The position numbers and the translations under genes were made by a program. The notes under the pieces were generated by a model. The model made no database searches. It had not been told where the DNA came from and worked only from the letters and a program-made list of their open reading frames with translations. DNA of 64,000 nucleotides. It comes from Elusimicrobia bacterium UBA5214. GTDB taxonomy: Bacteria; Elusimicrobiota; UBA5214. Location of the stretch: contig DHVG01000001.1 of the NCBI GenBank assembly GCA_002412545.1, positions 206,766 through 270,765 on the forward strand. Direction: 5' to 3'. Shown one piece after another: positions 33,907-51,383 of this stretch; positions within the stretch are counted from its first letter, which is position 1; each line of letters opens with the position of its first letter.

Positions 33907-35038
33907 CTAATGACTTTCGCTCCTCATTCGCCAATCTAAATAGGACTCAATAAACTGGTCAAGTTCACCGTCCATTACTGCGTTAATGTTGCCGGTTTCC
34001 ATTCCGGTGCGATGGTCTTTAACCATCTGGTAAGGCATAAAGATATAAGAACGAATCTGACTACCCCAAGCAATTTCACCTTTCTCATCGTAATGTTTCT
34101 CTAAAGCGAGACGCTGTTTTTCCTTTTCTAACTCGGAGAGTTTTGCTTTTAGGACTTTTAAAGCGGTAATTTTATTTTTATATTGTGAACGTTCATTTTG
34201 GCATTGGACAACAATCCCCGTAGGGAGATGAGTTATTCTTACTGCCGAGTCAGTTTTCTGTAAATGTTGTCCCCCGTGTCCGGAAGCACGGAAGGTATCA
34301 ATTCTTAAATCTTCATCCTTAATTTCAATTTTGATTGTATCTTCTATTTCCGGTAAGACATCGCAGGAAGCAAAAGAGGTATGTCTTCGTTTATTAACAT
34401 CAAAAGGTGAAATGCGCACTAAACGATGGACACCGATTTCTGATTTCAAATAACCGTAAGCATATTCACCTTTGACTAAGAAAGTTACACTTTTTATTCC
34501 CGCTTCTTCACCCGGAGAAAGGTCAGTAATAATTGTCGGATATCCTTTCTTATCTGTCCAACGGAGATACATCCGGAGAAGCATCTCACACCAGTCACAA
34601 GCTTCCGTCCCACCAGCCCCGGCATGTAAAGTCACAATTGCATTGTCTCTATCTTCCGGTTGAGAAAGTTTAAGCCGAAAATCTAAATTATGGATATCTT
34701 TTTCTAAAGTTTTAACTTTTTCTTCAATCTCAGGGAGAAGAATTTTTTCTTCTTCTGGATGTCCACCTACGGCGGATTCGGCAAGTTCAAGAAGTGTTTC
34801 TAATTCTTCAGTTTCTTTTTTAAGTTGATACCAGGGATGGAGGACTTCTTTTAAATTGTTTAATTCCTGAAGGATTTTTTGTGCTTCCAGTGGGTTAGCC
34901 CAGAATTCTGGCTGGTGAGTTTTTTCTTCAAGTTGACGGATATATTTTTCTTTATTTTCAACTTCAAAGGCACCTCCGGAATTTATCTAATTTTTCTTTA
35001 AAAAGATTACTTTTTTCTTCCCATTCTTTTAACATCAT
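33907..35038 (-). CDS. prfB: Peptide chain release factor 2 with programmed +1 ribosomal frameshift (shift site CTT TGA A at 34969-34964 on the minus strand)
   Basis: The frame-0 N-terminal peptide MMLKEWEEKSNLFKEKLDKFRRCL ends at an in-frame TGA preceded by an SD-like GGAGGTG. The +1 frame continues EVENKEKYIRQLEEKTHQPEFWANPLEAQKIL...TLHAGAGGTEACDW. The downstream part carries the GGQ motif (SGHGGQHLQKT). Confidence 0.85.
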
Positions 35039-44929: not shown

Positions 44930-46645
44930 TTAGATAAGTGCATATTTTGTTCGGGCAATTGAATATAACCTTTTCCAAACGAGACGATTAAATAATACAA
45001 CCATTAAAGCCATCACTAAAACACTACCAGAAAGGAGAGAAAAGTCCCCTTTGGATGTAGATAGAGTAATCAATGAACCTAATCCAGTTGCTGAAATCGT
45101 TCGTCCTTTAAAGTGGATATATTCCGCAACAATACTGGCATTCCATGCTCCGCCCATCGCAGTAACCCAACCGGTAACTAAATAAGGAAAAATCGTCGGA
45201 AGAATTACTCTTCTCCAGAATTTTGTTTTCTCTAAATGGTAAATTTTTCCTACTTCCACCAAATCGGTCGGAATAGTTGTTGCTCCGGCAATCGTATTAA
45301 ACAAAATATACCATTGTGTTCCAAGCATCATTAAAATTACTGCACCAAATTGTAAACTGATTCCGAAATAATTCATTATTACTATTACCAGAGGAAAAAG
45401 CATTGGTGCCGGGAAAGAAGCTGCAATTTGTGTTACCGGTTGCAGTATTTTTGATAAACGAGGATTCATCCCAATGGCTACACCGGTCGGTATTGCCCAG
45501 ATTGAACCGATAAATAGAGATAATAAAGTACGCAACAAGGTTAAAGAACCTCTTCCTAAGATAGTAGACCAATCGGCAAAAGAAACTTTGCTTAAAAGTG
45601 AAAACAAATGAATTATTCCATCAAGAATAAAAAATGTAACCAAAATAAGTAAAGTCCAACGGAAAATCTTACTCAAAGAAGTAACTTTTCTCTGGTTTAC
45701 TTTCCTCTGGGAAAGTATTTCTTTTATCTTAAGCAAAACCTTCTTATTTAGATAATCTACAAGTAAACTAATAATTTTTGATTCTTGAAATAAATCAAGA
45801 ATAAACGAGTTAGAAATTACTGCTGACTTTGTCTCTTCAAATTTAAACTTCTGTGACCAGACGACTAATGGACGCCAGAGTAAACGGTCAACACCGATAA
45901 TCATCAGAATCATTGTTAAAATTGCATAAAACATCGCCTGGATATTACCTTGTTCAATGGCTACACTCATATAAGAACCAATACCGGGCAGACGAAAATC
46001 TTTATTCCCGAGAACGAATGCTTCACAGATAGTCAAAAAAAACCAACCACCAGCCATTGACATCATACTATTCCAAATCAGACCAATTGATGCATAAGGT
46101 AGTTCCAGTCGCAATAATTTTTCTAACCGTCCAAATTTCCATACTTTAACTGTATCAATAAGGTCCTGAGGAATTGATTTTAAAGAAGAATAAAAACTAA
46201 AAGTCATATTCCAGACCTGCCCACTGAAAATCATCAAAATACAAGCTAATTCTAATCCAATATTCCAATGCGGGAAAATTGAAATAAAGGAGATAACTAA
46301 CCCGGGTAAAAAACCAAGCACTGGAATACTTTGTAAAATATCTAATATTGGAATCATTATTTTTTCCGCCTTTTTGTTATGAGCAGCGACATAGCCATAA
46401 ATAATCGTAAAAATTAAAGAAAGAAAATATGCCACAAATCCTCGGGATAAAGAAAACAAGGTATATTTCGGTAATGACCATGGACTTAAACTTATCTCAA
46501 CTAATGGTTGAACCGGTGCCCCCCATCTTTGTGCAATTTTAAGTAATGCCCAAAAAGCACCGAAAATAAAAATAAAAATAATTAAATCGGCTAAAAAAAA
46601 AGTTTTCTCTAATTTAACCTGTGATTTGATTAAACTCATAAACAA
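44930..46645 (-). CDS. ABC transporter permease with two fused BPD-type transmembrane domains (NitT/TauT-like)
   Basis: 571 aa, about 12 TM helices in two halves. Adjacent to the ATPase. No substrate-binding protein gene nearby. Confidence 0.65.
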   Translation of the reverse strand: MFMSLIKSQVKLEKTFFLADLIIFIFIFGAFWALLKIAQRWGAPVQPLVEISLSPWSLPKYTLFSLSRGFVAYFLSLIFTIIYGYVAAHNKKAEKIMIPILDILQSIPVLGFLPGLVISFISIFPHWNIGLELACILMIFSGQVWNMTFSFYSSLKSIPQDLIDTVKVWKFGRLEKLLRLELPYASIGLIWNSMMSMAGGWFFLTICEAFVLGNKDFRLPGIGSYMSVAIEQGNIQAMFYAILTMILMIIGVDRLLWRPLVVWSQKFKFEETKSAVISNSFILDLFQESKIISLLVDYLNKKVLLKIKEILSQRKVNQRKVTSLSKIFRWTLLILVTFFILDGIIHLFSLLSKVSFADWSTILGRGSLTLLRTLLSLFIGSIWAIPTGVAIGMNPRLSKILQPVTQIAASFPAPMLFPLVIVIMNYFGISLQFGAVILMMLGTQWYILFNTIAGATTIPTDLVEVGKIYHLEKTKFWRRVILPTIFPYLVTGWVTAMGGAWNASIVAEYIHFKGRTISATGLGSLITLSTSKGDFSLLSGSVLVMALMVVLFNRLVWKRLYSIARTKYALI

Positions 46646-46767
46646 CTATTTTAATAAACCTTAAGGAAAAAGTCAAAAATTTTGTTATTTTAAATCAGGC
46701 AGGAATGAATTGTAGCCGAGCCTTAAGGCTCGGCTGAATTATTGAACATTAACAACCGTCCCTAATT

Positions 46768-46797
46768 CTAAAATTGACACGGTTACCGAAGTCAATA
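46768..46797. repeat. Direct repeat copy 1 (CTAAAATTGACACGGTTACCGAAGTCAATA), left flank of the Bro-N fragment
   Basis: 27 of 29 nt identical to copy 2 at 47110-47138. Both copies are followed by TGTCACC-like sequence. Confidence 0.6.
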
Positions 46798-47022
46798 ACA
46801 AAAGGTAACTTCCAATTTCAGTCGGTGACAAAATGTCACCACCTCACTTCCTTCTTCTCTTAATCTTTGAGCAAGTTTATTCCAATATTTTCTAGCCGTA
46901 TAATCATCAACTTGGTCGGTTAATACTCGCACTACATCCACAACCGAAAACCACCATTCATTGTTAAATAGTGATCTTCTGATTCTTTTGCCTTTGAATA
47001 ATACAATTTTAGTTGTTTCCAT
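46792..47022 (-). pseudogene. Truncated Bro-N/KilA-N-like (phage antirepressor N-terminal domain) gene fragment, 76 aa
   Basis: The stretch KGKRIRRSLFNNEWWFSVVDVVRVLTDQ fits the Bro-N pattern (IR...E.WF.a.DVa.aL). The ORF is too short for a complete domain and is isolated between direct repeats. Confidence 0.45.
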
Positions 47023-47109
47023 AATTTACTCCTATCAAATTTAAGATTTAATCAGTTTGTAATCCAAATTTCAAGGCATTGGGGAGCCGATTTCTCACCC
47101 GATAAATTT

Positions 47110-47138
47110 GAAAATTGGCACGGTTACCAAAGTCAATA
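47110..47138. repeat. Direct repeat copy 2 (GAAAATTGGCACGGTTACCAAAGTCAATA), right flank of the Bro-N fragment
   Basis: See copy 1 at 46768-46797. Confidence 0.6.
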
Positions 47139-47208
47139 TGTCACCCTGAACATAAGTGAAGGGTCTCACATTTCTGACCCCATTCCCCTCAAGTTGTGTC
47201 TTATTCTT

Positions 47209-48567
47209 TTAATAATCAATATTAAAAAACTTTTTTAAATTTTGTCTTGCAGTTTCACTTCCTAAATCTGCCGCTTTTTGCCAGTCACTAATGCTTAATT
47301 TATTTAATCCTTTTTTATAATAAGCGACTCCACGATTATAGTAGGCATCTTCATGTTGTGGATATAAATCTATAGCTTTATTGTAATCTTTTATTGCTTC
47401 ATCATATAACTCTTTATCTATATAAATAGAAGCACGGTCATTATAAACAAAACGAAGTACCCACTCACTAGCTTCAAAAACTTCATCTTCTGGAAATAAA
47501 ACTAAGACTGCAGTAGTAATATCAAAATTACCTGTCGTAATTTTCGCTCTTTCAGTCCCGGAAGATGATAATACCCAGAAGTATGTTGTAATTTCCGATA
47601 ATCCGAAGTAATTGTAATTTGGGATTGAAGCTAATTGAATCGCTTCCGTATAATCTTGTATTGCTTTGTCATATAATCCTAATTTTCTATAAATGCCCCC
47701 GCGAATTCGATGTGCATTTGCATTTCTAGGTTTTAGTTCAATCCATTTTGTATAGTCGCTTATTGCCATGTAATTCAATTCCTTATTGGCATAAGCATCA
47801 CCGCGGTTCTCATAGGCATATGCATATTCGGGATTTACTTTTATTGCCTTTGTATAGTCTTCTATTGCTTCGTCATCCAATTTTTTATAATAATGATAAA
47901 TAAACCCACGGGCAATGTATGCCTTTGCATATTTTGAGTCCAATTCGATTGCTTTTGTAAAATATTCTATTGCTTTATCAAAAAGATGTAAATAATATAC
48001 TTCTTCACCTTTAATAAACCATTGGTATGCGGTTAGGTTTTCGGTCGGATTAACTTTTATTTCTTCTTTTTCTTTTTCACCCAAAACAATTTTCAAACTA
48101 TCCAATAAATTAAACGCAATTTCATCTTGAAGTTTAAAAATATCGGATATATTACCAGTTATTTCTGCTGTGTCAATTACTTCCCGGGTTTCCACATCCA
48201 CAAATCTTGCCGTAACTCTTAGTTTATCTCCCATAACCTGAAAAGAACCAAAAACTAACACATCGGCGCCATACATTTTGCCTATTTCAACTGCGGTTTT
48301 TTCATCAACGGCACCTGAATACTGAAACTTTATCTCTTCTAATATTTTTGACAGATATTCTCTTTCAAGTACGGTTATTTCGCTGACTTTAACTATTTTT
48401 GTAGTTAAGGTTTCTGAAAATCCCGCACCTATCCAGTTTTTTTCTTTATCTTCGGTTATATTTTGAAAAGGGATTACTGCAATATTTTTTGTCTGATTAG
48501 ACCCCTTCGGGGATAATACGGGGCAAGTAACAAACAAGATAATAATGGCTAGAAATATTTTTTTCAT
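47209..48567 (-). CDS. Lipoprotein with CsgG/FlgP/LpoB-like N-domain and multiple TPR repeats
   Basis: Lipobox LFVTC. N-domain NIAVIPFQNITEDKEKNWIGAGFSETLTTKIV...VLEREYLSKILEEIKFQYSGAVDEKTAVEIGKMYGADVLVFGS. C-terminal TPR units (AYIARGFIY, AYENRGDAY, AYYNRGVAY). Confidence 0.6.
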   Translation of the reverse strand: MKKIFLAIIILFVTCPVLSPKGSNQTKNIAVIPFQNITEDKEKNWIGAGFSETLTTKIVKVSEITVLEREYLSKILEEIKFQYSGAVDEKTAVEIGKMYGADVLVFGSFQVMGDKLRVTARFVDVETREVIDTAEITGNISDIFKLQDEIAFNLLDSLKIVLGEKEKEEIKVNPTENLTAYQWFIKGEEVYYLHLFDKAIEYFTKAIELDSKYAKAYIARGFIYHYYKKLDDEAIEDYTKAIKVNPEYAYAYENRGDAYANKELNYMAISDYTKWIELKPRNANAHRIRGGIYRKLGLYDKAIQDYTEAIQLASIPNYNYFGLSEITTYFWVLSSSGTERAKITTGNFDITTAVLVLFPEDEVFEASEWVLRFVYNDRASIYIDKELYDEAIKDYNKAIDLYPQHEDAYYNRGVAYYKKGLNKLSISDWQKAADLGSETARQNLKKFFNIDY

Positions 48568-48835
48568 TAAAATTCCTCCAAGGAAAACGGTGTCGGATTT
48601 AAAATTTTCAATCTTTTGTATCTTTGCCAGACTTGATTTCTTAATTTATTTCAACGATATAAATATAAAAACTATTTTATAAATCTAATCGCTACAAACC
48701 ACCGCTTTCAGCGGGGTCTCCGAAATACAAAAACCGACTTGGTGAGTTACATCATATTCTCCGGATTAATCCGCTTTTCCAAACACCTCGTTCAGTCCAT
48801 CAATGGTTTTTTGCATATCAAAGGATTTCTGGGCT

Positions 48836-48958
48836 TCAATTGTCAATACAGGAAACAGTAATATAATAATCTTTCTCAAGAAGCCTTAAAGGGAATCCTG
48901 TCTGTGCAGATGCTCTTTCAAGAATCTTAAGAAATTCCTCTTTATCGTTATGAAGCAT
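48836..48958 (-). pseudogene. abiEii: Truncated AbiEii/AbiGii-family nucleotidyltransferase toxin remnant (40 codons, then stop)
   Basis: Minus-strand ORF MLHNDKEEFLKILERASAQTGFPLRLLEKDYYITVSCIDN* carries the AbiEii N-terminal EKDY(W/Y)(V/I)T signature. Its ATG overlaps the abiEi stop by 11 nt (ATGCTTCATAA). The reading frame collapses after about 40 codons. Confidence 0.5.
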
Positions 48959-49748
48959 TTTCAATTAACATCCATTTTTTATTAACCTTGCCTTTCCTTG
49001 ATTTTGAAGGATAAAGGTTAATCAATGATGTTTTTTTAACCGCCTTCAGCAAAGGCACGAGCTCTTTATCAGGCACCCCTGCACTTTCAAGCACAAAGCC
49101 GATTCTCTTTGCTGTTGCGACATCAGGAAACCTCAGAGCATATCTTTTAAGCTTTCCTGCATCTATTTTCCTATTTTTTATCTGTTCTTTTAATATCTCA
49201 AATGCTTTTTTCATGCCTCCGATGGGGTCAGGAAAATAAACCAGGTCAACAAGAGTTCTCTCCCGGTCACTCACTATCACCCCGGTATCCTTGATTCTGA
49301 TTTTTTTAAGACCATACATCCTTTTCTGGGAAATCTTAACCATTTTAAAACGCATGCTGCCGATTACCTTTTCCCTCTGCAAAGAGGTATTTAGTATGTA
49401 CATCACCTGAAAAATTTGGTCAGTAAAGCCATAGTAGTTATACATAGGTGAATAACCGATGTAATAATTGTCTTTGGGAAAGAAAACTGAAGGAATAAGA
49501 AATTCATTGATATTGCTTCCGGCAGGTCCTGCCTCAAGAGGCGAATAAAGATAAACACCCTTCTTTATCTTTTTCAGGATGCCCTGCCTGTTGAGCCTGA
49601 AAAGTATTTTTTCCCTTGCCTTCTTAGGAAATCTAAAGTATCTGCCAAACTGCTCCAGGGTTACTATCGAAACCTTTTCGTAGGCAAGTCTTGCAATGAC
49701 TTTTTTTTCCCTGGGACTTAAATATTGCATTGTATTATTTTTTACCAT
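48948..49748 (-). CDS. abiEi: AbiEi-family type IV toxin-antitoxin antitoxin / transcriptional regulator (apparently orphaned)
   Basis: N-terminal wHTH-like segment (LSPREKKVIARLAYEKVSIVTLEQFGRYF). Immediately upstream of, and overlapping, an AbiEii-like remnant. The gene is about 45% GC against about 33% in its flanks. Confidence 0.5.
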   Translation of the reverse strand: MVKNNTMQYLSPREKKVIARLAYEKVSIVTLEQFGRYFRFPKKAREKILFRLNRQGILKKIKKGVYLYSPLEAGPAGSNINEFLIPSVFFPKDNYYIGYSPMYNYYGFTDQIFQVMYILNTSLQREKVIGSMRFKMVKISQKRMYGLKKIRIKDTGVIVSDRERTLVDLVYFPDPIGGMKKAFEILKEQIKNRKIDAGKLKRYALRFPDVATAKRIGFVLESAGVPDKELVPLLKAVKKTSLINLYPSKSRKGKVNKKWMLIENAS

Positions 49749-49790
49749 TTTTCCATCTCTCGGAAATATTGTAAATTTCTATACAATATG

Positions 49791-49818
49791 ATTTTACATC
49801 TTTTTAGGCTTTTGTCAA
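49791..49818 (-). promoter_or_regulatory. Putative abiEi promoter on the minus strand (TTGACA, 16-bp spacer, TAAAAT), followed by an ATTGTA...TACAAT inverted repeat (49769-49788)
   Basis: Hexamers read from the reverse complement. The inverted repeat lies between the -10 element and the start codon, consistent with an autoregulatory operator. Confidence 0.35.
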
Positions 49819-49906
49819 GTCAAAAATGCTTGAATGCTCGCACAGTAAGAATCATTCCGCATTACTGTAACTAGTGTAGTGCGTCAAACAGATCTTTACA
49901 TTTGGT

Positions 49907-49980
49907 TGTCATTGCGAGGTCTCTTTTAAGAGACCGTGGCAATCCCATTATGAGATTGCTTCACTTCGTTCGCAATGACA
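49907..49980. mobile_element. MITE-like element copy A (74 bp) with terminal inverted repeats tGTCATTGCGAgg ... cgTTCGCAATGACa, abutting the uvrC stop codon
   Basis: Shares its termini and internal blocks (GGCAATCyCAT.A.GAGATT, GATTGCTTC) with copy B at 51396-51519. Confidence 0.6.
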
Positions 49981-49994
49981 TTTCAGTGTAATCA

Positions 49995-51383
49995 TTAGCC
50001 GGGAGTGACTTTTGCGATAGGCTGAAATTTATCTTTTTTGCGCAGGAGTTTGTGGTAGGAAATAGCGAAGCGGTGGGCTTCGTCACGAATCCGCTGGAGT
50101 AGTTGTAAAGCCGGTGAATTTGCCGGTAAATTAAGAGGTTTACTTTTTTTCGGCAATCCCTCCTTCACTAAAGCTTCCTCTTTCGCCAAGGCTTTAGAGG
50201 ACAAGTCGGAGGGCAGGTAGATTTCTTCTTTTTCTTTAGCTAAAGCGATTATAGGTAGTGTAAGGTGTAAGGTGTTAAGTGTTTCCACTGCGGTAGATAG
50301 ATGTCCTTTACCACCGTCAATGAGAATAAGGTCGGGAAATTTCTCCCCCGCTTCCAGAATTCTTTTGTATCGCCGGGAAAGAACTTCGCTAATCATTTTA
50401 TAATCGTCAATTTTATTTACTGTCTTTATTTTATATCTCCGGTATAAGTTTTTGTTCGGTTCACCTTTTTCAAAAACAACTAAAGAACCTACTGCCTGTT
50501 TACCGGAAATATTGGAAATATCAAACGCTTCAATATGTAAAGGTACATTGGGTAAGGAGAACAACTTTTTCAGTTCGCTTAAACCTTGAGTAATTTTGAT
50601 TTTTTTCGGTAAATCTGTTTCTCGGACTTCTTTAAAATCAATCCGCTCGGGAATATTTTGGATTGCGGAAATCGTATCGCGGATTTTTCTTGCTTCTTCA
50701 AAATCAAGTTTTTTTGAATATTGCTGCATTTGTTTTTCTAAATGCTTAAGTAATTCTTGATGGTTCCCTTCTAAAAAAAGAATAACTTGGTTAACTATTT
50801 CCCGATATTTTTTTTGACTAATTTCACCAAGACAGGGTGCGGGACATTGTTTTATATGATAATAAAGGCAGGAACGCACTTTTTTTTCCGGTATCGGTGT
50901 ATCTTTAGAAAGCGGGTATTTACAGAGACGGAGTGGGAACACCCGCTGTAACCAGCGTAAAGTCCTGCGGGTTTGTCCGACTTCAGTGTAAGGTCCGAAA
51001 TAACGGGCATTTTTTACTCTCCCTTCCCGTTTTCTTGCCAGGAATAAACGCGGAAACTCTTCACCCAAAGTGAGCATTAAATGCGGGTAGGATTTATCGT
51101 CCCGCCAGAGGATATTGTATTTCGGCTGGTATCTTCTAATCAGTTTACTTTCTAAAATTAACGCTTCGGTTTCGGTTTTTGTTACCAAGTAGTCAATTTT
51201 GGCAATTTGCGGGAGCATAATTGCATTTTTTGTAGATTGTTCAATATGTGGGTAAAAATAGGAAGCGACCCGTTTTTTTAGAGAAGTAGCTTTACCGATG
51301 TAGATGATTTGACTGCTGCTATTCTGCATTAAATATACGCCGGGTGCAGAAGGTAAGTTTTTCAGTTTTTCTTTTAGATTCAT
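49995..51383 (-). CDS. uvrC: Excinuclease ABC subunit C lacking the C-terminal (HhH)2 domain (462 aa)
   Basis: N-terminal GIY-YIG domain (APGVYLMQNSSSQIIYIGKATSLKKRV), the UvrBC-interacting region, and the RNase H-like endonuclease domain (IEAFDISNISGKQAVGSLVVF...YRRYKIK, DLILIDGGKGHLS, RDEAHRFAISYH). The ORF ends right at MITE copy A. Carries a GGTGTAA heptamer-repeat insertion at 50256-50284. Confidence 0.8.
   Translation of the reverse strand: MNLKEKLKNLPSAPGVYLMQNSSSQIIYIGKATSLKKRVASYFYPHIEQSTKNAIMLPQIAKIDYLVTKTETEALILESKLIRRYQPKYNILWRDDKSYPHLMLTLGEEFPRLFLARKREGRVKNARYFGPYTEVGQTRRTLRWLQRVFPLRLCKYPLSKDTPIPEKKVRSCLYYHIKQCPAPCLGEISQKKYREIVNQVILFLEGNHQELLKHLEKQMQQYSKKLDFEEARKIRDTISAIQNIPERIDFKEVRETDLPKKIKITQGLSELKKLFSLPNVPLHIEAFDISNISGKQAVGSLVVFEKGEPNKNLYRRYKIKTVNKIDDYKMISEVLSRRYKRILEAGEKFPDLILIDGGKGHLSTAVETLNTLHLTLPIIALAKEKEEIYLPSDLSSKALAKEEALVKEGLPKKSKPLNLPANSPALQLLQRIRDEAHRFAISYHKLLRKKDKFQPIAKVTPG

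Follow-up and report, generated by a model that had tools for sequence, protein, structure and literature searches.

A 76-codon fragment of a Bro-N gene is the only open reading frame between two near-identical direct repeats in the spacer that separates uvrC from an ABC transporter permease gene in Elusimicrobia bacterium UBA5214. The question that this locus raises is where the fragment came from, and whether the repeats on either side of it record how it arrived. We analysed the whole 64,000-nucleotide stretch of contig DHVG01000001.1 in which it lies (hereafter the window). The initial annotation had recognised a phage antirepressor-type Bro-N motif in the ORF, had read the repeats as att-site or target-duplication remnants, and had proposed that they delineate a small degraded genomic island. 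Our analysis shows the locus to be an ordinary case of genome decay, in which defence DNA gained by horizontal transfer has eroded at a variable position of an Elusimicrobia metagenome-assembled genome.

The ORF is present between the repeats, as had been described, and lies on the minus strand (Table 1). Scored directly against the Pfam Bro-N model (PF02498), it reaches 14.6 bits (E = 0.053), under the gathering cut-off of 25.6 bits. Its Bro-N character is nevertheless borne out by homology, since it is 70-84% identical to the N-termini (residues 1-73) of Bro-N proteins of ~280 aa, and the full-length homologues at loci L005 and L047 pass the cut-off at 48.7 and 56.4 bits. We found 531 homologues of the stub, the best non-self match having E = 1.5e-33 and 81% identity. 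A genome scan returned more than 580 homologue loci in Patescibacteria, DPANN and methanogenic archaea, Omnitrophota, Desulfobacterota and others, and at most of these the gene is 275-290 aa long; an apparent family-wide truncation near codon 72 proved to be an artefact of short metagenome contigs, most genome copies being full length. The stub follows the family up to ...CHRLKLE, after which come four unrelated codons and a stop. The PADLOC phage defence candidate profile PDC-S13 matches it with E = 4.3e-21 over positions 1-71 of 286 only, whereas the match to the L005 homologue spans positions 1-272 of 286 (E = 3e-118). Judged by these alignments, the ORF is a fragment of a Bro-N gene with an incomplete domain, of which about two thirds is left, together with about a quarter of the protein; put in PADLOC terms, it is a dead 5' remnant of the candidate defence gene PDC-S13. 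The same stub protein, in unchanged surroundings, is found in GCA_002400355.1, GCA_003530275.1, a Logan assembly and JGI contig Ga0134309_00001 (642 kb).

Nucleotide comparison extends the foreign DNA beyond the ORF and points to the kind of operon that it came from. By blastn the relic matches L005 at 84.9% (47027->46809), L006 at 78.2% (47069->46814) and L022 at 70.8%, and donor-type mod-dinD operons with 71-85% nucleotide identity to it occur in Patescibacteria, Desulfobacterales and Acetothermia. Homology to full-length dinD-like genes stops at 46809-46816 in every comparison. On the upstream side, homology to L006 and L022 runs on to 47069 and takes in the final ~44 nt of a gene of ~885 aa located ahead of dinD, which in L006 encodes a type III methyltransferase (E = 3.6e-224). 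In both L006 and L022 a type III methyltransferase gene stands ahead of the embedded dinD-like gene, which in L022 is followed by a 998-aa ORF, and the methyltransferase-then-dinD order of the relic is the same as in intact operons of other phyla. As both the methyltransferase 3' end and the dinD 5' part are homologous to intact loci, the relic is therefore a piece of 261 nt from inside a mod-dinD operon. The 35 nt and 11 nt that lie beside the repeats had no matched origin in the blastn comparisons.

The wider spacer is also peculiar to this lineage. The gene order leuS-lptE-holA-rpsT-murJ-uvrC-permease-ATPase-... is common to both relative lineages, and the interval from uvrC to the permease gene measures 55 nt in L100, 328 nt in L096-L099 and ~3.35 kb in the window. 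Shared sequence ends at ~50025, in the last uvrC codons, and resumes in the conserved permease promoter region, where L096 9913-9928 corresponds to window 46684-46669. The comparison with relatives that the initial annotation had proposed thus did find the shorter site, and its reading of the locus as a degraded island holds because uvrC adjoins the permease gene directly in two sister Elusimicrobia lineages; the AbiEii toxin gene within the block is itself a stub. These two lineages, the nearest relatives found, and that of the window are equidistant from one another (permease identity 84-85%), and the ancestral state therefore cannot be polarised. From uvrC onwards the block holds a 75-nt hairpin, AbiEi, the AbiEii stub, a CsgG-like/TPR gene, repeat copy 2, the relic, repeat copy 1 and a palindrome. 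Relatives of the TPR protein are found in Elusimicrobia at 52-57% identity and at other loci, and with even its closest relatives lying at unrelated loci, the gene gave no guidance on the donor or on intermediate stages. No integrase, transposase, resolvase or recombinase was found among the called genes within 10 kb on either side, nor by Pfam among 30 other large ORFs that cover most of the remaining window, and ARAGORN found no tRNA or tmRNA in the 64 kb. Base composition shows no anomaly (block GC 0.30-0.39 against 0.36 overall, with no change of skew), and a scan of 46400-50200 with the Rfam 15 covariance models, at E up to 5, gave nothing meaningful. To judge from these comparisons, the block between uvrC and the ABC transporter is lineage-specific decayed accessory DNA.

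Table 1. Features of the uvrC-permease interval and their positions in the window.
Feature	Position	Strand	Remarks
Permease operon promoter-like site TTGACT-17-TAAAAT	46648..46676	-	conserved in sister lineages; shared sequence resumes there
Lineage-specific block, maximal extent	46685..50024	.	uvrC homology ends ~50025; promoter homology starts ~46684
Perfect 22-nt palindrome AGCCGAGCCTTAAGGCTCGGCT	46714..46735	.	9-bp GC-rich stem, TTAA loop; permease-side edge of block
Direct repeat copy 1	46764..46797 (core 46770-46797)	.	overlaps stub ORF stop codon
76-aa ORF (stub)	46792..47022	-	first ~72 codons of DinD-like Bro-N / PDC-S13 gene, then 4 unrelated codons and stop
Foreign relic, 261 nt	46809..47069	-	~44 nt of type III methyltransferase gene 3' end, short spacer, 214 nt of dinD-like gene
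Direct repeat copy 2	47105..47138 (core 47111-47138)		83-116 nt upstream of stub ATG; 70 nt downstream of TPR gene stop
CsgG-like N-terminal domain + TPR-repeat protein, 452 aa	47209..48567	-	within lineage-specific block
AbiEii toxin stub, 42 aa	48836..48964	-	N-terminal ~36 of ~300 residues; PADLOC AbiEii E = 1.3e-6, positions 3-36/314
AbiEi antitoxin, full length	48948..49748	-	PADLOC AbiEi E = 9.2e-50; Pfam AbiEi_1
AbiEi promoter-like site	49818-49791		
Three-way-junction hairpin element, ~75 nt	49907..49980	-	directly after uvrC stop; uvrC-side block edge

Each edge of the block carries an element that can fold. The perfect GC palindrome noticed at the outset is exactly where it was placed, with copy 1 on one side and the permease promoter on the other. 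Of the only four perfect GC-rich palindromes with a stem of at least 8 in the window it is the longest; it is unique there and is absent from both sister spacers. As RNA it folds with -18.1 kcal/mol (z = -4.2), with no U-tract on either strand. It could possibly serve as a terminator or insulator hairpin, and a role as a read-through barrier before the permease promoter would be plausible. At the opposite edge, the element behind uvrC folds into a very stable structure with -38.4 kcal/mol (z = -7.8), and its arms recur in L106, L077, L063, L006 and more than 120 IMG/VR contigs, with ~50 full-length instances. It has no match in Rfam, and its sequence was not found in the relevant literature context. 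It is a member of a widespread palindromic element family and, with arms conserved at the nucleotide level across phyla, is possibly the more useful by-product of our analysis.

How, then, are the repeats to be understood? The pair had been described as 30-bp units, both followed by TGTCACC-like sequence. Two near-identical copies are indeed present in direct orientation, with a unit of 28 nt instead of 30 (ATTGRCACGGTTACCRAAGTCAAT) and with starts that differ from those first given by 2 and 1 nt; TGTCACC stands directly after copy 2 (47139-47145), whereas the occurrence near copy 1 falls within the ORF (46834-46840), at a distance of 36 nt. The cores are identical at 26 of 28 positions (2 differences), and an extension to 34 nt retains 88% identity. 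Outside these 34 nt the flanks show no significant similarity (alignment score 39 against a null of 31.8 +/- 5.4), and no inverted repeats were found at the inner repeat edges. The pair encloses 341 bp, taken as the period, with 313 nt between the cores. The copies are also palindromic in themselves, though imperfectly so, with ATTGAC-N12-GTCAAT around a GGTTACC centre. The two copies are the sole matches in the window at up to 3 mismatches, where 100 shuffles expect 0.00. The best third match reaches 19/28, the level given by shuffles, and no further copy of the 28-mer is seen in the 64 kb even at 9/28 mismatches, a scan which rules out densities above ~1 copy per 20 kb and nothing lower.

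Several identities for the repeat unit were considered and rejected. A chance origin of the pair is at odds with the shuffles, which expect none and place the third match at background. A structured RNA is unlikely, because each copy folds weakly (-7.5 and -6.5 kcal/mol) and in its own way; the 2 substitutions are not compensatory, and Rfam gives no match. A CRISPR-like array would have at least three regular repeats with spacers of ~30-40 nt, as against two copies and a 313-nt interval here. A dif site, or an element exploiting Xer recombination, would be expected at a GC-skew switch, whereas cumulative skew runs straight through the locus and the genes keep one orientation.

The 28-mer has no match in IMG/VR, and a metagenome scan gave 11 unrelated matches, all of them single, in a collection that does not include this genome. 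Most of the 11 fall within a conserved stretch that translates as IDFGNRGN, which we take to resemble TonB-dependent receptor coding sequence, and these look like chance matches. Both repeat copies in the window translate as IDFGNRxNF, and a 57-aa ORF in the L096 spacer ends in ...DFGNTHRLNF...; the in-frame 6-nt indel and the third-position changes between them are suggestive of the 3' end of a small ORF. As a source of the repeat, a 57-aa ORF of this type gave nothing by tblastn and belongs to no Pfam family. At 80 loci of Bro-N homologues the repeat is absent, save for the core in the leader of L047 and a partial match at L020.

Two leads bear on the origin of the unit. Among the sister-lineage loci, only the 328-nt spacer of L096 contains it, as a single diverged copy, TGACTTCGG......T.ACCGT.T.AATTTTA, which lies 107-138 nt upstream of the permease ATG, approximately in the position of copy 1 (score 30, shuffle P ~5e-4). 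Because this motif resembles copy 1 more than copy 2 (30 versus 20) and occupies an equivalent place, it suggests that copy 1 is the resident sequence and copy 2 its duplicate. The other lead comes from the homologues. On the gene strand the repeat core reads TTGACTTCGGTAACCGT and begins with the consensus -35 hexamer TTGACT, and it is 16/17 identical to the -35 region in the short leader of the full-length homologue L047, from a Daviesbacteria MAG (TTGACTTCGGTAAACGT ... TAATCT, 6 nt, ATG). The leader of L020 (ATTGACTTCGG ... TTTAAT, 7 nt, ATG) shares part of the sequence at the same position. The two leads may be reconciled if the resident unit is a type of promoter-like element that dinD cassettes also use, or if the L096 copy is itself a relic; alternatively, one of the two similarities may be fortuitous.

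The best explanation that we can offer, and one that we hold tentatively at somewhat less than an even chance, is an insertion of foreign DNA at a palindrome already resident there and promoter-like in sequence, with duplication of that site and subsequent decay of the insert. The insertion site would be the imperfect palindrome in the spacer (ATTGAC-N12-GTCAAT, on the gene strand TTGACT...). Restriction-modification or defence DNA would have inserted there and left the unit on both sides, whether as the shared core of att-type sites or through a long duplication of the target. Deletions within the insert, confined to the neutral zone from the TPR gene to the permease promoter, would then have removed all but 261 nt. 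This zone, measured from the TPR stop to the permease promoter, is only ~530 bp long, so whatever survives in it must lie near both repeats, and the tight bracketing is in itself unsurprising. What argues for insertion is that exactly two direct copies sit tightly around demonstrably foreign DNA, with 71-85% identity to mod-dinD operons, that sister lineages with an 84%-identical permease have a shorter or empty site while the flanks are dissimilar past 34 nt, and that the inverted 6-bp half-sites round a palindromic centre resemble a recombinase or protein-binding site. Insertion-generated repeats of variable length, from 8 to 514 bp, are on record for IS1549/IS1634 (PMC2266710). Counting against insertion are the lack of any integrase, transposase, resolvase, tRNA or tmRNA in the 64 kb and of terminal inverted repeats; a transposon with a target-site duplication would show such inverted repeats and a transposase gene between the direct repeats, and neither is found. 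Moreover, the relic is an internal operon fragment, and at least two later deletions, or the capture of a fragment, must therefore be assumed; and given the likeness of its core to the L047 leader, the unit may have arrived with the foreign DNA instead of being resident. The 35 nt and 11 nt without a matched origin and the equidistance of the three lineages also weigh against insertion. The repeats do not bound AbiEi, the AbiEii stub or the TPR gene, and this DNA must therefore have arrived or been rearranged separately. All in all, att or target-duplication remnants are the most likely reading of the repeats for the small relic; that the insertion created the duplication, and that the deletions followed it, is inferred.

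The part of the original proposal that does not stand is that the repeats delimit the island, as they lie 341 bp apart within a 3.3-kb block that has no third copy. The fullest form of that proposal, in which the repeats are attL and attR of the whole 46.7-50.0 kb island and a site-specific integrase brought it in, is consistent with the island being missing from relatives. It is contradicted by the geometry, with AbiE and the TPR gene outside the repeats and no third copy near uvrC; the missing integrase, tRNA and GC or skew anomaly also count against it, and we consider it the least credible of the readings. A better case can be made for the repeats being two cis-regulatory elements, a promoter or operator that travels with DinD-like cassettes and has nothing to do with an integration junction; the stub would once have had its promoter in copy 2, and a second cassette, now lost, would have had its own in copy 1. 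The -35 hexamer at the start of the unit on the gene strand, the operator-like palindromic half-sites and the position of copy 2 upstream of the stub ATG all accord with such a role, as does the match to the L047 leader with its echo in L020, for which we estimate a chance probability of ~1e-4 over 80 upstream regions. However, the -10 is poor (TTTAGA / TTTCAA at 17 nt, with TAGAAT only at 19 nt), and the promoter scan listed neither copy. What precedes the stub is the methyltransferase 3' end and not an L047-type leader, none of the remaining 78 loci with a homologue shows the motif, a conserved promoter lies nearer to the permease, and a duplication or two separate acquisitions would still be required. 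Regulation by travelling elements is thus an improbable account, albeit one that deserves to be taken seriously.

It is unlikely, too, that the 28-mer belongs to a low-copy family of dispersed repeats (REP-, MITE- or binding-site-like) and that two of its members, 341 bp apart, share a variable intergenic region by happenstance. The unit is palindromic, as in REP-type elements, a contig of the same-species assembly L004 (GCA_003530275.1) ends 32 nt outside copy 2, and the scan of this genome covers only ~70 kb, all of which would suit a dispersed family. Set against this are the lack of any other copy in the 64 kb at the mismatch level given above, its absence from the 80 homologue loci and from the sister-lineage loci save for the one diverged copy in the L096 spacer, the empty IMG/VR search, and metagenome matches that are all single and fall mostly in the chance-like IDFGNRGN stretch. 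A local tandem duplication with a 341-bp period, whose upstream unit has since been deleted or overwritten almost entirely, would equally leave two direct repeats at its ends. In its favour, the 8 nt that border copy 2 on its outer side (GGTGACAT) are found again 36 nt beyond copy 1, within the stub (...VVTFCH...), and the flank of copy 2 therefore looks like that of copy 1 minus 36 nt. Yet 12-mers of such quality are expected by chance in 2 kb, the flank alignment is not significant, and an intact TPR gene fills the space where the upstream unit should be, so that we regard this origin as quite unlikely. Insertion with a junction duplication followed by decay is the reading that we tentatively retain.

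Whether the duplication at this locus stands for something more general can be asked of the full-length homologues. Locus-specific direct repeats flank the gene in L067 (45 nt, 44 identical), L047 (56 nt) and L056 (44 nt, extendable to 117), and repeats of 126 nt and 82 nt are seen at L010 and L060. In L047, L067 and L056 the repeats of 44-56 nt stand off from the gene by ~90-150 nt on its upstream side and by 13-48 nt on its downstream side. A first comparison with neighbouring ORFs gave an apparent enrichment (7/63 versus 3/105); with tighter flanks and more controls it was 4/54 versus 5/213 neighbouring ORFs and not significant (p = 0.085). The ends of the cassettes vary from locus to locus, and in L047 the duplication takes in the 3' end of ppnK as well, which makes it non-collinear. 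A search of IMG/VR for empty sites of L047, L067 and L056 returned nothing, or random 17-mer matches only, and we found no literature linking Bro-N/DinD genes to flanking repeats. It would be bold to propose, and we think it very unlikely, that the ~30-nt duplication is the footprint of an unrecognised, recombinase-independent insertion of defence genes embedded in restriction-modification systems (PDC-S13/DinD-like), which would duplicate tens of bp of a palindromic, promoter-like target.

Taken alone, the locus matters little, being one more case of defence-gene debris in a variable intergenic spot. It is, though, a clean example, dated by its decay, of a gene that usually lies within a restriction-modification operon and is left here as a stub far from any such system, and it comes with three states of one interval (55 nt, 328 nt and 3.3 kb) in three sister lineages. 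For the question of how embedded defence genes move, the duplicated short palindrome on the two edges of the relic would be a lead.

Compared with known systems, the stub can be aligned residue for residue to the first ~72 aa of DinD / Bro-N proteins (PF02498) that are ~280 aa long, a comparison made with members other than E. coli DinD itself; JGI names its relatives 'DNA-damage-inducible protein D' or 'prophage antirepressor-like protein'. Those proteins are complete, whereas the stub is a quarter-length fragment predicted to be non-functional. PDC families are genes embedded in restriction-modification, BREX and DISARM systems (bioRxiv 10.1101/2024.01.29.577857), and the donor-type loci L006 and L022 fit this picture of an embedded gene, the name PDC-S13 being absent from the text of that paper; the fragment in the window, by contrast, is dead and lies outside any restriction-modification system. 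As in the AbiE type IV toxin-antitoxin and abortive-infection system, a full-length AbiEi gene adjoins the start of AbiEii, but the toxin gene is cut to 42 codons here and the system is therefore not intact. IS1549 and IS1634 are examples of insertions that can copy target stretches tens of bp long (PMC2266710), and unlike them the locus has no transposase gene or terminal inverted repeats. From att-flanked decayed genomic islets it differs in lacking an integrase and a tRNA target, in repeats that are a putative recombinase site at most, and in enclosing 341 bp and not an island. Integrase-less att-flanked remnants are treated as cis-mobilisable elements in the ICE/IME literature. Like such islets, the locus presents ~30-nt direct repeats round foreign DNA, and in its relatives the corresponding site is shorter or empty.

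The spacer between uvrC and the ABC permease is occupied by 3.35 kb in the window, by 328 nt in one sister Elusimicrobia lineage (L096) and by only 55 nt in another (L100). These three states of one intergenic site in three equidistant sister lineages mark the spacer as a variable hot spot. The 328-nt spacer contains a 57-aa ORF, which had no match in Pfam and ends in ...DFGNTHRLNFTVRF*; both repeat copies that bracket the 76-aa DinD-like stub of the window read IDFGNR(V/A)NF, which is alike, with an in-frame 6-nt indel between this reading and the end of the ORF.

The flanks of the window repeats were also inspected. Eight nucleotides adjoining the outer edge of copy 2, the repeat at 47105-47138, occupy 47139-47146 and read GGTGACAT on the minus strand; they occur again at 46834-46841, that is, 36 nt outside copy 1 and inside the stub, a recurrence that may be due to chance or may be the trace of a collapsed duplication. 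In one assembly of this species (GCA_003530275.1), contig DPTL01000261.1 begins at window position 47170, placing an assembly break 32 nt outside copy 2. Since the permease and its neighbouring genes are likewise called in pieces there, this break may reflect poor assembly rather than one induced by the repeat. The repeat core TTGNCACGGTTACCNAAGTCAA had 11 exact matches in metagenomes (L085-L095), seven of which lie within one conserved stretch translating as ...IDFGNRGNDINPEDIES..., presumably coding sequence of a TonB-dependent receptor (SusC-type). The match is attributed to chance together with the abundance of this receptor-like family, a warning for scans with short patterns.

Several full-length DinD-like/PDC-S13 genes in other phyla also have locus-specific direct repeats (44-126 nt) on both sides; the enrichment of flanking repeats over neighbouring ORFs was not significant (p = 0.085). 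At L047 the DinD-like gene stands alone amid housekeeping genes, with hrcA and a 231-aa ORF, read as NAD kinase, before it and lepA after it. Here and at another DinD-like locus, L020, TTGACTTCGG(T/G) occupies the -35 position of a very short leader, in which a -10-like hexamer precedes the ATG by 6-7 nt; the L047 motif shares 16 of 17 nt with the core of the window repeat. A second truncated DinD-like stub (L101) adjoins an ORF whose product, judged by eye, resembles the N-terminus of a RhuM-family protein, and similar promoter-like 33-nt sequences (27/33 identical) precede both this stub and the next gene.

Coordinates of the features compared
Feature	Locus	Position	Strand	Remark
uvrC-permease interval	window	46685-50024		3.35 kb
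uvrC-permease interval	L096	9673-10000		328 nt
uvrC-permease interval	L100	9946-10000		55 nt
Region of a repeat-flanked full-length DinD-like/PDC-S13 gene	L047	4085-5132
Same	L067	4853-5889
Same	L056	4767-5943
Same	L010, L060
Leader motif TTGACTTCGG(T/G)	L047	4189-4205
Leader motif	L020			~40 nt upstream of gene
Region of a truncated DinD-like stub	L101	4001-4491		84 aa; upstream of type I hsdS/hsdM genes
prfB (release factor 2)	window	33907-35000	minus	frame switch ~34963-34969
Hairpin element	window	49907-49980	minus	~75 nt; directly 3' of uvrC stop
Hairpin-element arm	L106	8520-8546
Same	L006	2054-2080
Same	L077	4038-4066
Same	L063	4106-4135

Elsewhere in the window, prfB occupies two reading frames that join at CTT TGA A, and GGAGG lies 3 nt upstream; this layout is the classical one of a programmed +1 frameshift.

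Beside uvrC lies a hairpin element with a predicted three-way junction fold (-38.4 kcal/mol, z = -7.8) and the arms GTCATTGCGAgCGAAGcGAAGCAATC ... CTCGCAATGAC. It had no match in Rfam, and its sequence was not found in any relevant context in the literature. The arms recur at 89-100% identity in MAGs labelled Elusimicrobia, Gammaproteobacteria, Saccharibacteria and Desulfobacterales, and in more than 120 IMG/VR contigs, some carrying several (L141 onwards). About 50 instances are complete hairpins of 64-93 nt (-30 to -65 kcal/mol), and at several loci the element adjoins toxin-antitoxin, restriction-modification or dinD cassettes.
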